Positions 30,847 through 63,375 of a stretch of DNA of 64,000 nucleotides are shown piece after piece. The stretch covers positions 32,001-96,000 of the forward strand of contig CAVVCZ010000007.1 of assembly GCA_963746845.1 (NCBI GenBank), in the 5' to 3' direction. The notes below the pieces were generated by a model. The model saw nothing but the letters and a program-made list of their open reading frames with translations, was not told the origin of the DNA and made no database searches. A program made the position numbers and the translations under genes. Within the stretch, counting starts at the first letter, position 1. Each line of letters starts with the position of its first letter. The stretch comes from an uncultured Chloroflexia bacterium (GTDB taxonomy: Bacteria; Chloroflexota; Limnocylindria; Limnocylindrales; CSP1-4).

Positions 30847-33768
30847 ATGAAGCGCGCCGGTTCGATGCTCTGTCCCGTCATCCTCGGACGCGACGACTTG
30901 CTCGACCTGTTGGACGACTCGATCGCGGAGACACGCCAGGGTCGTGGCAGCACCCTGTTCCTGTCCGCTCCAGCAGGCCTCGGCAAGACCCGCCTGATCC
31001 GGGCCACCATCAGGAAGGCGGAGGCCGCCGGGCTCCGGGTTGACGGTGGCTCCGTCGCGCCGCAGGACCACCAGGTGCCGCTGGCGTCGATCCGCGAGAT
31101 GGCCGTCGGGATGCGCGGCAACGCCGCGTGGGGCACGCTGTCCGAGGACCTCCTCGCCATCGATGGCCACCACGACGGCGATGCGCTCGGGGCGCGACGG
31201 CTGATCGTCCGGGCGGCGGCGGACCGGATCCTCGCGGCGATCGACCGCCCGACGCTGCTCATCTTCGACGACCTCCACTGGACCGACGAGATGAGCCTGG
31301 AGGTCATCGGCGAGCTCGCGCGCCACAGCGCGGAGCGCGCGCTGTTCCTGCTGGCCGGCTATCGGGCCGACGAGTTCCGGCCGGACACGATCCACCGCGA
31401 GTGGCGTGCGCGGCTCTTGAGCCAGCGCCATGCGGAGGAGGTCCGCCTCCGGCCACTCACCCGCGAGGAGACCGGAACCGCGACCACGCTCATCCTCGGC
31501 GGCGAGCTGCCGGCGCCGCGTGAGGTCGTCGACGCGGTCCACGACCGGACAAACGGGATTCCGCTCCACATCGAGGAGCTCCTCGCCGCGCTGGGCGACG
31601 ACGAGCGGCGCGACGGTCGGCGCATCCGCGACGCCCATGTGCCGGACACCATCGGCGATGCAGTCCTGGCCCGGCTGGCCCGGCTGTCCGGCAATGCCCA
31701 GCTGGTCGCGCGAGCGGGCGCCGTCATCGGGCGCTGCTTCAGCCCGGACGTGATCGCCGGCCTGCTCGATCGCCCGCTGGTGGAGCTCGAACCAACGATC
31801 GCCGAACTCGTTGACGCCTCGATCCTTTACCCGTTCGACTACATCGACCAGGGCTACTACGACTTCCGTCACCAGCTCCTGCGCGACGCGATCTACGGCG
31901 CCGTCCCGCCGTCGCAGCTGCGGAAGTTCCACGCCCAGGCCGCCGAGTTCGTGATGACGCTCGAGGGGTCCAGCGTGGTCCACGCATCGCGTCATTACGA
32001 GCGGGCCGGGCTCCGACCACAGGCCTTCCGCGCGTCGATGACGGCCGCCCAGGCGGCCAGTCGGATCTCCGCGCGGCAGGAGGCCTACGAGCTGTACCGG
32101 AGGGCCGTCGACAACATGCCGCCGGACCTGCCGATCACCGAACAGGCCCAGCTGTACTCATCGGTCGCCGGAGCCGCGGGGGCGATCGAGCTGAACCAGG
32201 AGTGCTACGACGCCGCGGCCATGGCGCGCGCGCTGTGGCTGGAGGCGGGACGCCCGCTCGAGGCAGCGGAGATGCTTGGCTCGATGTCCGTTCTCACCGC
32301 GCGCGACGGCTCGCCCGCCGATCAGCTCCGCGCGATGGCCGAGCAGGCGCTGGCCGAGATCCAGGACTTGCCCGTGACGCGCGAGCGGGAGGTCGTGCGG
32401 GGATCCCTCCTGAGCTCGGTGGCCGCGAACTTCCTGTGGGCCTCGGATCTCGAGTCTGCCCGGACGACCGCCATGTCCGCGCGCGAGCTGTCGGACTCGG
32501 TCGGCGACCGCGAGACCGCCCTCGAAGCGGAGCTGTGCCTGGCCCGGATCGACATCGCTGCCGGTCGGATCGAGCAGGGCCTGTCGGACGGGATGCGCGC
32601 GGCTCGGGAGGCGCGCGATGCCGGCTACGAGAGCGTCGGGGTGACCGGCTACCGAAACCTGGCGATCATGGCCGCCCGGGTCATGGACCACGGCTCGGCG
32701 AAGGTCGCAATCGGAGAGGGCCTCCAGTACGCCGACGCGATCGAGCAATCCCATTGCCGCCAGATGATCGCGACGACATTGGCGATCCTCGACTGGGCGG
32801 CAGGAAACTGGGAAGACGCGGACGCGCGTGCCCGCCAGGAGCTCGTCGACCGCGGCTGCCGTCGGGGGGTCATCGGGGCGCTCGATGCGATCGGCCTGGT
32901 GGCGCTCGGGCACGGCCGATTGGATGAGGCCCGCCGCTGGCTGGACGAGTCGCTGGACACGGGCAAGGGGATCGGCGAGGCGCAGCTGATCCTCACGCCG
33001 TTGTGGGGCCTGGCCGAGGTGGACCTCGCGGCCGGCAGTCCGGCCGACGCCGTCGCCCGCTGCGGGCAGGCGCTCGACATCGTCGGGCGCGCGGACGAGC
33101 GGGCGCTCCTCATCCCATTCGTGGTGACCGGGACCCGGGCGTTGCTCGCCGCCCGGCGGCCGGACGACGCGGAGCGCTGGCTGGCGACGATGCGGGACGA
33201 GCTGGTGGGCTGGGAGGCCGTGGCGGAGCCGGCCCTCGCCCACGCCGATGGGCTCGTGAAGCTGGCGGCCGGTTCGCTGTCCGCAGGGCGTGAGGCGTTC
33301 GAGATCGCGATCCGCGGCTGGGACGAGCGACGCCGCTTCTGGGAGGCGTCCTGGGCGCGGCTCGACCTGGCCCACGCGCTCATTCGTTCGAACCGCTACG
33401 GCGAGGCGTCGACGCTCGTGGTCCAGGTCCGGACGCGGGCCGAGATCGTCGAGAGCCCCGCCCTCATGGCCCGGGCCGACGAGCTGGCCCGGATCGGGCG
33501 CGGGCGGGGCACGACCGAGGAGCCGTGGCATCCGCTGACCGCCCGCGAATTCGAGGTCGCCCGGCTGATCGCGGAGGGTCTCACGAACGGCGAGATCGCC
33601 GAACAGCTCGACATCGCGCCGAAGACGGCCAGCTCGCACGTCGAGCACATCCTCGCGAAGCTCGGGGTCACGCGCCGGGCGGAGATCGCAGCCTGGACGG
33701 CGACGGTCAATCGGCCGGTCGCGGCAGACCGCACCGGCGGCGGCACGGCCGTCGCCACCCGCCGCTAG
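30847..33768 (+). CDS. Large ATP-binding LuxR-family (LAL) transcriptional regulator
   Basis: APAGLGKT, LIFDDLHW, TNGIPLHIEEL, FRHQLLRDAIY, C-terminal LTAREFEVARLIAEGLTNGEIA. Confidence 0.93.
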   Translation: MKRAGSMLCPVILGRDDLLDLLDDSIAETRQGRGSTLFLSAPAGLGKTRLIRATIRKAEAAGLRVDGGSVAPQDHQVPLASIREMAVGMRGNAAWGTLSEDLLAIDGHHDGDALGARRLIVRAAADRILAAIDRPTLLIFDDLHWTDEMSLEVIGELARHSAERALFLLAGYRADEFRPDTIHREWRARLLSQRHAEEVRLRPLTREETGTATTLILGGELPAPREVVDAVHDRTNGIPLHIEELLAALGDDERRDGRRIRDAHVPDTIGDAVLARLARLSGNAQLVARAGAVIGRCFSPDVIAGLLDRPLVELEPTIAELVDASILYPFDYIDQGYYDFRHQLLRDAIYGAVPPSQLRKFHAQAAEFVMTLEGSSVVHASRHYERAGLRPQAFRASMTAAQAASRISARQEAYELYRRAVDNMPPDLPITEQAQLYSSVAGAAGAIELNQECYDAAAMARALWLEAGRPLEAAEMLGSMSVLTARDGSPADQLRAMAEQALAEIQDLPVTREREVVRGSLLSSVAANFLWASDLESARTTAMSARELSDSVGDRETALEAELCLARIDIAAGRIEQGLSDGMRAAREARDAGYESVGVTGYRNLAIMAARVMDHGSAKVAIGEGLQYADAIEQSHCRQMIATTLAILDWAAGNWEDADARARQELVDRGCRRGVIGALDAIGLVALGHGRLDEARRWLDESLDTGKGIGEAQLILTPLWGLAEVDLAAGSPADAVARCGQALDIVGRADERALLIPFVVTGTRALLAARRPDDAERWLATMRDELVGWEAVAEPALAHADGLVKLAAGSLSAGREAFEIAIRGWDERRRFWEASWARLDLAHALIRSNRYGEASTLVVQVRTRAEIVESPALMARADELARIGRGRGTTEEPWHPLTAREFEVARLIAEGLTNGEIAEQLDIAPKTASSHVEHILAKLGVTRRAEIAAWTATVNRPVAADRTGGGTAVATRR

Positions 33769-62569: not shown

Positions 62570-62604
62570 GACGGCGACGAGTCTAGCGCTACCATCCCTC
62601 GACG

Positions 62605-63375
62605 ATGCGCGACCAGCTGTCGCTGCCGCTGGAGCCCGACGTCCAGCCGCTGCCGAACCTTCCCGACGGGCTGCGGCCGATGCTCCCCCGGATGATCGCC
62701 GAGCCCTTCGACTCCGCGGTCCACCTGTTCGAGCCGGCCTGGGGCGGGACCCGGGCGCTGGCGTTCATCGGGCCGGCCGAGGACCCGGGCGCCGGCGAGG
62801 TCCGGATCCTCGACGGCGAGGGTCGCGACCTGGGCCCCGCCCTGCCGGAGCTCGCGGGGATGGCGGTGCGCGTCGACGCGCGGTCCGCGGTGCTCGACGG
62901 GGAGCTCGTTGCGGTCGACGAGGCGGGCCGCGCGGACCCGGCCGAGCTGGCACGCCGGATCGGCGGAGGCGCCGGCCGGCCGGTGGCGTTCCTGGCATTC
63001 GACCTCCTCCACATCGATGGGCGGTCGCTGCTCTCGACGCCGCTCCACAAGCGACGCAACCTCCTGCGCCGGATCCTGCACCCGGGCGACGAGGTCCTCG
63101 CGGTGCCCGCGATCGCCACCGAGGGCCGGGCCCTCCACGCCGCGGCCGCGGCGCAGGGGATCGCCGGGGTGATGGCGCGCCAACGGACGAGCCCGTACCT
63201 CCCGGGCACGATCTCGCGGCTGTGGCGGTTCATCGCAACGGAGCCCAACCCGACCCCGGCGGCCGCGGCGAACCCGGATCTGGGCCTGGGGCTGGAGCTG
63301 ACCGAGCCGAGCGCGACGGCCGCGGCCCCGGTGGTCGCCTTGATCCGGAGACTCCCCCTGCTCTTCGACGAGTAG
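62605..63375 (+). CDS. ATP-dependent DNA ligase adenylation-domain homolog lacking catalytic residues and OB domain
   Basis: LRPML, FEPAWGGTRA (cf. EPKWDG.R), LDGEL, AFDLL..DG, PL..RR..L, AGVMAR...SPYLPG...W; N-terminal QLSLPL. Confidence 0.85.
   Translation: MRDQLSLPLEPDVQPLPNLPDGLRPMLPRMIAEPFDSAVHLFEPAWGGTRALAFIGPAEDPGAGEVRILDGEGRDLGPALPELAGMAVRVDARSAVLDGELVAVDEAGRADPAELARRIGGGAGRPVAFLAFDLLHIDGRSLLSTPLHKRRNLLRRILHPGDEVLAVPAIATEGRALHAAAAAQGIAGVMARQRTSPYLPGTISRLWRFIATEPNPTPAAAANPDLGLGLELTEPSATAAAPVVALIRRLPLLFDE

Follow-up and report, generated by a model that had tools for sequence, protein, structure and literature searches.

What purpose could be served by a protein that has the fold of a DNA ligase and none of the residues with which a ligase adenylylates itself? 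The question is raised by a gene at positions 62,605 to 63,375 of a 64,000-nucleotide stretch of DNA from an uncultured Chloroflexia bacterium (the window), which corresponds to positions 32,001 to 96,000 of contig CAVVCZ010000007.1 (C7) in a 3.56-Mb genome, G000, that is 92% complete. The gene encodes a relative of the ligase domain of LigD with a conserved peptide at each end, of which the N-terminal one resembles the motifs that bind the bacterial sliding clamp (DnaN, the beta clamp). We propose, with moderate confidence, that the protein is a clamp-tethered, non-catalytic adaptor or regulator of DNA repair. The parts of the gene, with their basis in alignments, an AlphaFold2 (AF2) model and its predicted local distance difference test (pLDDT), and ratios of non-synonymous to synonymous substitution rates (dN/dS), are as follows.

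62605..63375, + strand: whole open reading frame (ORF), 256 amino acids plus stop, ATG start; lysine-poor, catalytically dead LigD-type ligase nucleotidyltransferase (NTase) protein
62611..62637, + strand: residues 3-11, DQLSLPLEP, putative beta-clamp-binding motif, assigned by sequence and a complex model
62614-62631, + strand: hexapeptide QLSLPL (Q4-L9), within residues 3-11
62662..63240, + strand: NTase fold with degenerate motifs, residues 20-212, from alignments, AF2 model and superposition
Motif positions within the fold: motif I, A45-W-G47-G-T-R50; motif III, L97-D-G-E100; motif IIIa, F132-D133-L-L; motif IV, A187...R192; motif V, W207-R208-F-I210
63241..63324, + strand: linker, residues 213-240, variable, low-complexity and disordered (dN/dS 0.82, low pLDDT)
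63325..63372, + strand: C-terminal helix and LPL motif, residues 241-256 (APVVALIRRLPLLFDE), conserved in orthologs

The sole Pfam domain of the protein is PF01068, the ATP-dependent ligase NTase domain (E 1e-14, residues 66-207, above the cut-off), and no OB-domain family gave a Pfam match at E up to 1; the chain ends 44 residues past the NTase core, with a disordered linker and one short helix. All 12 matching ligase models of NCBIfam score far below their curated cut-offs, among them TIGR02779 for ligases of non-homologous end joining (NHEJ), at 101.6 against 227.75 bits. An AF2 model built from 23 diverse family members has a mean pLDDT of 83 and is confident over approximately residues 20-212, with values above 90 across 169 residues; the pLDDT falls below 50 at residues 4-15 and 216-239, which appear disordered, and the short C-terminal helix (242-249) is modelled at ∼75. 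The ordered part superposes on ligase NTase domains only (Z 23-24.5, root-mean-square deviation 1.8-2.1 Å, 185-191 residues), including archaeal ligases, residues 453-639 of Mycobacterium tuberculosis (Mtb) LigD and the Lig1-PCNA and archaeal ligase-PCNA entries 7qnz and 7rpo, and these structural matches end at residue 213-216, covering the NTase domain only. The best solved relative is the ligase domain of Mtb LigD (1vs0/6nhx, E 3.2e-17).

Aligned with Mtb LigD, the losses fall on the catalytic motifs. In motif I, FEGKWDGYR has become FEPAWGGTR, with the adenylylated Lys replaced by A45 and the Asp by G47; LRSRSGRD reads ILDGEGRD; and in motif IV EGVIAKR has become AGVMARQ, with Glu replaced by A187 and Lys by R192. 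Motif V, which is WLKIK in intact relatives, reads WRFIA (R208, I210). The structural motifs PML, LDGE, FDLL and SPY.PG are kept. The original prediction, made from the letters of the window alone, had described an intact ORF with a dead ligase domain, no OB domain and preserved structural motifs, and the Mtb LigD alignment, Pfam and the AF2 model all bear this description out.

The same substitutions define a family. Among the 150 representatives listed, members read EPxWGGxR in motif I (where x is A, S, W, R, T or another residue, never K), AGVxAR in motif IV and SRLWRxI in motif V, and intact relatives in the same listing read E.KWDG, LEGI.AK and WLKIK; no ortholog retains KxDG. No alignment column of the 23 diverse members has Lys in more than 20% of sequences, and 11 of the 23 contain no lysine at all. 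Since the family has no conserved Lys, a lysyl-AMP intermediate is impossible for it as a whole. Judged from its residues, the protein is a pseudoligase: it has the NTase fold and lacks every residue needed for lysine adenylylation, together with the OB domain.

The pseudoligase is widespread among relatives of its host. Of 24 same-genus genomes, 20 have a full-length ortholog without internal stops; in three others contig ends interrupt it, and in one none was found. Across the taxonomic family, orthologs that are likewise full-length and intact occur in 51 of 81 genomes. We calculated pooled Nei-Gojobori-type dN/dS estimates from 81 distinct orthologous coding sequences drawn from 91 loci; two loci from unpublished genomes (L012 and L034) were excluded from this set and from the DnaN alignment described below, and the unpublished genomes G010, G078, G212, G310 and G465 enter only as single rows in tallies. 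The estimates run from 0.23 for the core through 0.31 for residues 241-256 and 0.35 for residues 2-11 to 0.82 for the linker. A constrained core beside a nearly free linker, and intact orthologs, argue that this is a selected pseudoenzyme and not a gene in decay, as had been claimed from the selective nature of the catalytic losses. On this comparative evidence, pseudoenzyme status and the conservation of the terminal motifs are both solid.

Searches at protein level give a sense of the size of the family. Of 8000 candidates scored in a word-indexed search, 2822 were relatives at E up to 1e-3, and the top 120 of these have 222-269 amino acids and 72-100% identity. An exhaustive search of representatives at the 50%-identity level gave 9911 matches at the same threshold, with 53 clusters reaching E up to 1e-30; the motif tallies made on representatives cover 150 listed of these 9911. 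At least 572 genomic relatives were found. The names of close homologs include 'Candidatus Limnocylindrales bacterium', and the related contigs come from metagenome-assembled genomes of Chloroflexota. A protein atlas holds only generic clusters named 'ATP dependent DNA ligase domain-containing protein', mostly from Chloroflexota, and relatives are annotated 'hypothetical protein' or, by JGI pipelines, mislabelled LigD.

The feature that sets a possible function apart from ligation is the N-terminal peptide. D3, Q4, L5 and L9 are invariant in all 81 orthologs, and their codons vary synonymously. Position 8 is R in 67 and P in nine of the 81, so that the commonest hexapeptide is QLSLRL, and the consensus M-x-D-Q-L-[ST]-[LF]-x-L-[ED] fits the clamp consensus QL[S/D]LF or QxxLF. 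In the 23-member alignment, which reaches down to 38% identity, the residues invariant outside the fold core are Q4, L5, P242, L250 and L252, and Q[LP]x[LFMI]x[LIMVF] is present in 30 of 30 listed family representatives (50% identity level) whose N-terminus is covered. The hexapeptide had been identified as that of Hda, which the available text of PMC12309361 confirms: QLSLPL is there the tight-binding clamp motif of Hda, with the consensus QL[SD]LF or QLxLxL. In the same genome Pol IV carries DQLALFD and an ImuB-like paralog carries QQLPLF, which indicates that the lineage uses canonical clamp motifs. This Y-family paralog (contig C6:313569-313979, minus strand, locus L126; PF00817, E 2.4e-9) probably means that the genome also has a clamp adaptor of the mutasome type.

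A model of the complex is consistent with clamp binding. Two copies of the single DnaN of the genome (L013:763-1875, aligned with 14 relatives) were modelled with residues 1-40 of the pseudoligase in three runs, which gave ipSAE interface scores of 0.64, 0.65 and 0.65, whereas none of three controls exceeded 0.00; at least 40% of contacts are common to the runs, and the pLDDT of the partner is 45-46. Of solved complexes, 58 of 80 attain the pass mark used, and of mismatched pairs 2 of 110. The modelled contacts join residues 3-11 to DnaN residues 151, 154, 171-176, 243-245, 247-248, 323, 347, 363 and 365-369. Residues 1-365 of E. coli beta align to 1-368 of this DnaN, and N323, M365, P366 and L367 would correspond by position to E. 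coli N320, M362, P363 and M364, which according to the available text of PMC6511837 line subsite 2 of the clamp, beside the hydrophobic subsite 1. The model makes it plausible that the N-terminal peptide occupies the pocket of DnaN that lies between domains II and III, and the modelling check suggested along with the original prediction came out, in silico, in its favour. The two other refuting checks named with that prediction, on retention of KxDG in close orthologs and on conservation and translation of the N-terminal motif, likewise went its way.

A clamp motif at residues 3-11 matters only if it is translated. Upstream of the ATG there are only six in-frame codons before a stop, and ATG is the start codon in 80 of the 81 orthologous coding sequences. 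An alignment of the 90 nucleotides upstream of the 81 orthologous loci contains one further conserved element.

62579..62595, no strand assigned: conserved 17-nucleotide intergenic block (GAGTCTAGCGCTACCAT), from the upstream alignment of 81 orthologous loci

Conservation is 80-100% in every column of the block, whereas the remaining spacer does not align, and the 17-mer occurs nowhere else in the genome. TACCAT lies on the plus strand 9 nucleotides before the ATG, and TAGACT on the minus strand 10 nucleotides before the GTG of the neighbouring S9 peptidase gene. We read the block as two back-to-back divergent -10 boxes that would yield leaderless mRNAs both ways from a 35-bp spacer; a scan for the strict sigma-70 consensus found no promoter. 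The position of the block fits translation from the first ATG, so the clamp motif is expected to be translated, from a start that is well defined and probably leaderless. Two other explanations of the upstream region were set aside. Membership of the LexA regulon found no support, as there is no LexA-like GAAC-N4-GTTC box in the 90 nucleotides upstream of the 81 orthologs. A regulon marked by the 9-mer GAGTCTAGC was dropped in favour of the divergent -10 boxes, because its 25 genome copies are near a rough chance estimate of ∼19; CTAG, which the 9-mer contains, is rare in coding sequence.

The C-terminus, which reads RRLPLLFDE, is conserved as well. All 81 orthologs share P242, R249, L250 and P251, again with synonymous codon variation, within the consensus P-V-L-A-L-I-x-R-L-P-L, and the linker that separates them from the core varies in length and composition. 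L[PR][LFMI] is found in 25 of the 28 listed representatives with the C-terminus covered, and the other three look frameshifted. Scanning the genome in six frames for [RKQ]LP[LFMI] close to the C-terminus, in frames no shorter than 120 amino acids, gave 12 matches, none of which has the helix-LPL motif, and no likeness was seen between this motif and the C-terminal arm of Ku.

Where the pseudoligase came from is recorded in its relatives. A hidden Markov model search of 401 genomes of the phylum gave full-length matches above 280 bits only in its own taxonomic family (G000 and 18 of the 23 other family genomes), followed by a second tier at 140-200 bits, from which 20 loci were cut out and sorted into groups B, C and D, group A being the clade of the pseudoligase itself. 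Group B, from sister families of the same class, has the same architecture (225-233 amino acids, 33-40% identity), with N-terminal [GEN]QL[SPD]L[PS][LIV], EPWWPG in motif I, DGTLL in place of DGE and C-terminal RPTLALILRLPL; in motif III it has lost the Glu that contacts the ribose, and in motif IIIa the aromatic residue. Group C consists of catalytically intact ligases of 341-345 amino acids with EVKWDG and an OB domain, which begin with DQLQIELESFP and end in ...LTRFPF. Group D comprises forms that lack the lysine and keep the OB domain (FEVAWGG, EVRWDG, ETRWNG), with C-termini such as QLPRLPL and ELPQLPF. Ku lies directly upstream on the same strand in 19 of the 20 loci (PF02735, E 1e-40 to 1e-45 in the five tested by Pfam).

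In an IQ-TREE analysis of 90 rows, a short search with an assumed root and the genome's own LigC as outgroup, the short lysine-less forms of groups A and B make up one clade (Shimodaira-Hasegawa-like approximate likelihood ratio test, SH-aLRT, 98) that is nested in a wholly lysine-less 34-row group (support 86). Support for a clade uniting groups C and D is 99, and all of these belong to a 57-row group of stand-alone ligases (support 94) that is sister to the LIG domains of LigD. Phylogeny and gene order together show the pseudoligase to descend from a LigD-type ATP-dependent ligase of a Ku operon.

Two observations on these loci stand apart from that descent. At L127-L134 and L143, in another Chloroflexota family, intact stand-alone ligases of the group C type lie directly downstream of Ku, and their DQLQIELESFP termini suggest that they may be clamp-coupled NHEJ ligases. 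At L144 and L145 the order is Ku, then a lysine-less paralog that keeps its OB domain (EVRWDG), then a LigD-like gene of PE-LIG type.

The links of the pseudoligase itself to end joining are less direct. In G000, Ku lies beside a PE-LIG-POL LigD on contig C4, away from the pseudoligase gene, and the genome also has an intact LigC-like ligase without a QL motif and a stand-alone Prim-Pol. In Mtb LigD, according to the available text of PMC13717202, the Ku C-terminus contacts LIG residues D522, K579 and L580, and L580E weakens Ku binding. These residues align to A92, N152 and L153 of the pseudoligase, of which N152 and L153 lie on a conserved helix (147-157, with R150 and L154 invariant in the alignment) and A92 lies upstream, next to motif III. 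Across the 81 family genomes, 47 have the protein and Ku, four the protein only, 19 Ku only and 11 neither, so that the protein accompanies Ku in 47 of the 66 genomes that have it and occurs in 4 of the 15 that do not, in counts that are not independent because the genomes are related. A stand-alone Prim-Pol is present in 78 of the 81, and its co-occurrence with the protein is uninformative.

As a separate observation on LigD, 14 of 15 Chloroflexota PE-LIG-POL LigDs (L147-L161 and the G000 copy on C4) carry at or beside the C-terminus a tail of the form ...GDLF.(4-9 residues)Q.LP.[LIV], which may serve as a docking peptide akin to the LPL tails on the ligase-like proteins.

Taken together, a dead and selected NTase body, a clamp motif, a conserved C-terminal motif and descent from a Ku operon lead us to the moderately confident proposal made at the outset. 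The N-terminal DQLSLPL would insert into the peptide pocket of DnaN, and sliding clamps that remain on DNA would carry the pseudoligase along or recruit it. The NTase-like body and the C-terminal helix-LPL element would then engage a nick or DNA end, a second repair protein, or both, and the protein would, in the manner of ImuB, be an adaptor in the repair of nicks or ends, or a regulator of it. The cargo recruited and the pathway served can be named only provisionally: Ku and LigD are candidate partners, from the operon ancestry, the Q.LP.[LIV] tails of LigD and the Ku-LIG contacts in Mtb. The suggestion of a scaffold that links LigC/LigD-type repair to the clamp therefore holds for the dead body and the conserved clamp motif, whereas the connection to LigD and Ku comes from ancestry and from Ku adjacency in sister clades, and not from this genome.

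Several points weigh against the adaptor proposal. Ku is within the fetched flanks (1.5-6 kb) in none of the 91 loci of the pseudoligase's own clade, and the peptidase and transporter genes that flank the pseudoligase gene in the window provide no local functional context. Four genomes carry the protein with both terminal motifs, no Ku match and one Prim-Pol match each, which means that LigD was not detected in them. If these absences are real, the partner is neither Ku nor LigD; the four genomes are 85-92% complete and Ku and LigD form one locus, so about five such cases are expected from gaps alone. Nucleotide binding does not appear to be a conserved function, since group B is without the Glu of motif III and the aromatic position of motif IIIa. 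Many clamp-peptide complexes have solved structures, a likeness that the docking score may partly echo; the home-made alignments and the two-copy clamp differ from the calibration of the complex model, and the docked segment was residues 1-40. Among sequencing runs holding the stretch, no RNA runs were listed, only five soil DNA runs with small word shares.

The alternative that survives best, which we regard as unlikely, is a clamp-independent accessory of Ku- and LigD-dependent end joining, in which the terminal peptides, the QLxLxL-like N-terminal one included, are docking motifs for Ku or LigD inherited from ligases of the Ku operon and the dead NTase is a structural module that bridges ends or binds the Ku arm. 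Such a role would fit the position of Ku just ahead of the ligase-like gene in 19 of 20 related loci (the sister clade of short lysine-less forms among them), the like N- and C-terminal motifs of catalytically intact Ku-operon ligases, the similar tail on 14 of 15 Chloroflexota LigDs and the more frequent presence of the protein in genomes with Ku (47 of 66, against 4 of 15 without, with the same dependence among genomes). It would also fit the touching of the LigD LIG domain by the Ku C-terminus in Mtb (PMC13717202, available text). It sits less well with an N-terminal motif that matches both the clamp consensus and the motifs of the genome's own Pol IV and ImuB-like protein, and that docks in the modelled DnaN pocket where controls score zero. 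Also against it are the four genomes in which the protein and both motifs persist although neither Ku nor LigD was detected, and the separation of the gene from Ku in 91 of 91 own-clade loci.

The protein might instead be a negative regulator, or 'anti-ligase', in which a tethered dead ligase fills clamp pockets or caps nicks or ends with 5'-phosphates and so excludes ligases or polymerases. We consider this improbable. It shares with the adaptor proposal the modelled clamp docking and the catalytic loss, and the Arg residues kept at the positions of motifs I, IV and V (R50, R192 and R208) could hold phosphate; the available evidence does not separate blocking from recruiting, but a simple blocker would have no need of the second specific partner to which the conserved C-terminal motif points.

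A cryptic enzyme or nucleotide sensor, whose NTase fold would bind nucleotide and carry out chemistry without lysine-AMP, is very improbable. The own clade does keep E100 of motif III, F132 of motif IIIa and R50 of motif I, yet 11 of 23 members are free of lysine, other residues stand in place of the Asp of motif I, the Glu of motif IV and both Lys of motif V, motif VI is missing along with the OB domain, and the sister clade, with the same architecture, lacks the Glu of motif III and the aromatic residue in motif IIIa as well. Finally, a decaying pseudogene or gene-call artefact, which could be suspected because high-GC DNA yields many spurious ORFs and JGI pipelines label relatives LigD, is effectively refuted by the contrast in dN/dS between core (0.23) and linker (0.82), by orthologs free of internal stops in 20 of 24 same-genus genomes and in 51 of 81 family genomes, by the confident AF2 model (pLDDT above 90 for 169 residues) and by the conserved start region.

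The gene is monocistronic, with opposite-strand neighbours that encode an S9 peptidase and an ABC-2 transporter, and this synteny holds in most of 80 related loci, which are close relatives. It has no operon partner, both flanking genes being on the opposite strand and unrelated to DNA repair.

Longer and shorter variants were also met in the searches. In a separate search for longer forms, 190 of 8000 scored candidates reached E up to 1e-3, and P0271 (662 amino acids) is the sole close one, the rest being true LigD; it was rejected as a fusion, since its first ∼380 residues are rich in R, G, A and P and its ligase part shifts frame, which points to an over-extended gene call. P0160 (246 amino acids) looks chimeric, with a Lig1/LigB-type N-terminal half that has an intact EDKYDG and a pseudoligase C-terminal half that includes RRLPFDDE, and P0272 (1301 amino acids) joins Exo_endo_phos, 5'-3' exonuclease, Prim-Pol and ligase domains. 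G000 has a second small ligase-like ORF of 232 amino acids (contig C2:144185-144880, minus strand; locus L162:185-880) that reads EPLWTGPR, without the motif I lysine, and matches PF01068 just above the cut-off (E 1.1e-6); its lineage is distinct from that of the pseudoligase.

Comparison with known systems helps to place the protein. The LIG domain of bacterial LigD (Mtb LigD 453-639; PDB 1VS0, 6NHX and 6NHZ) has the same fold (Z 23-24, root-mean-square deviation ∼2 Å) and 31-32% identity over 185 residues, shares PML, LDGE, FDLL and SPY.PG, and is its neighbour in the tree. Unlike LigD, the pseudoligase lacks the Lys and Asp of motif I, the Glu and Lys of motif IV, the Lys of motif V, the OB domain with motif VI, and the POL and PE domains, and it adds conserved N-terminal clamp and C-terminal motifs. 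The Ku adjacency of the bacterial NHEJ module is absent within the fetched flanks of the own-clade loci (0 of 91) and present in related clades (19 of 20).

ImuB is, in the available text of PMC10421592 and PMC11791113, a Y-family polymerase that has no catalytic activity and attaches to the beta clamp as part of the ImuA'-ImuB-DnaE2 mutasome. It was offered from the start as a precedent for the pseudoligase, and as a matter of logic it stands, because in both cases a selected enzyme fold without catalytic residues carries a clamp motif. The likeness stops there: the ligase NTase is unrelated to the Y-family fold, the motif of the pseudoligase is N-terminal and not internal, and its neighbours are a peptidase and an ABC transporter, with no imuA' or dnaE2 nearby. 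Hda of E. coli has the identical QLSLPL, also near its N-terminus, although most pseudoligase orthologs read QLSLRL instead; it is an AAA+ regulator of DnaA and not homologous to the pseudoligase.

Eukaryotic and archaeal DNA ligase I carries an N-terminal PCNA-binding PIP motif. As in ligase I and the T4 ligase-clamp pair, an ATP-dependent ligase fold would here be tethered to a sliding clamp by a terminal peptide, but those ligases are active and bind PCNA or gp45, whereas the pseudoligase is dead and its partner in the model is the bacterial beta clamp. DNA ligase IV has a non-catalytic structural role in eukaryotic NHEJ. The pseudoligase resembles it in a catalysis-independent ligase body and a Ku-linked lineage; ligase IV is still an enzyme, while in the pseudoligase the catalytic loss is hard-wired and the Ku link is found only in related clades.

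In the literature searched, whose coverage was incomplete, we found no DNA-ligase pseudoenzyme, and every match to 'pseudoligase' concerned ubiquitin E3; within the same incomplete coverage there was no clamp motif on a ligase of the LigD or LigC type and no link between Ku end joining and the beta clamp. Dead enzymes as scaffolds are known for polymerases (ImuB). It is tentatively possible, though on balance doubtful, that Chloroflexota underwent a radiation of stand-alone Ku-operon ligases coupled to the clamp through an N-terminal motif, several lineages of which, the present one among them, became lysine-free pseudoligases acting as permanent, non-catalytic adaptors from clamp to repair. 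If this were true, it would amount to a bacterial counterpart of both the PCNA-ligase I tether and the structural role of ligase IV, with NHEJ or nick repair coupled to the clamp.

On a practical level, the pseudoligase family is abundant in soil Limnocylindria, and its mislabelling as LigD means that counts of ligase domains overestimate the ligase and NHEJ capacity of these organisms. If the clamp tether is real, the family and its intact Ku-adjacent cousins would provide a handle on how bacterial end joining and nick repair are positioned.

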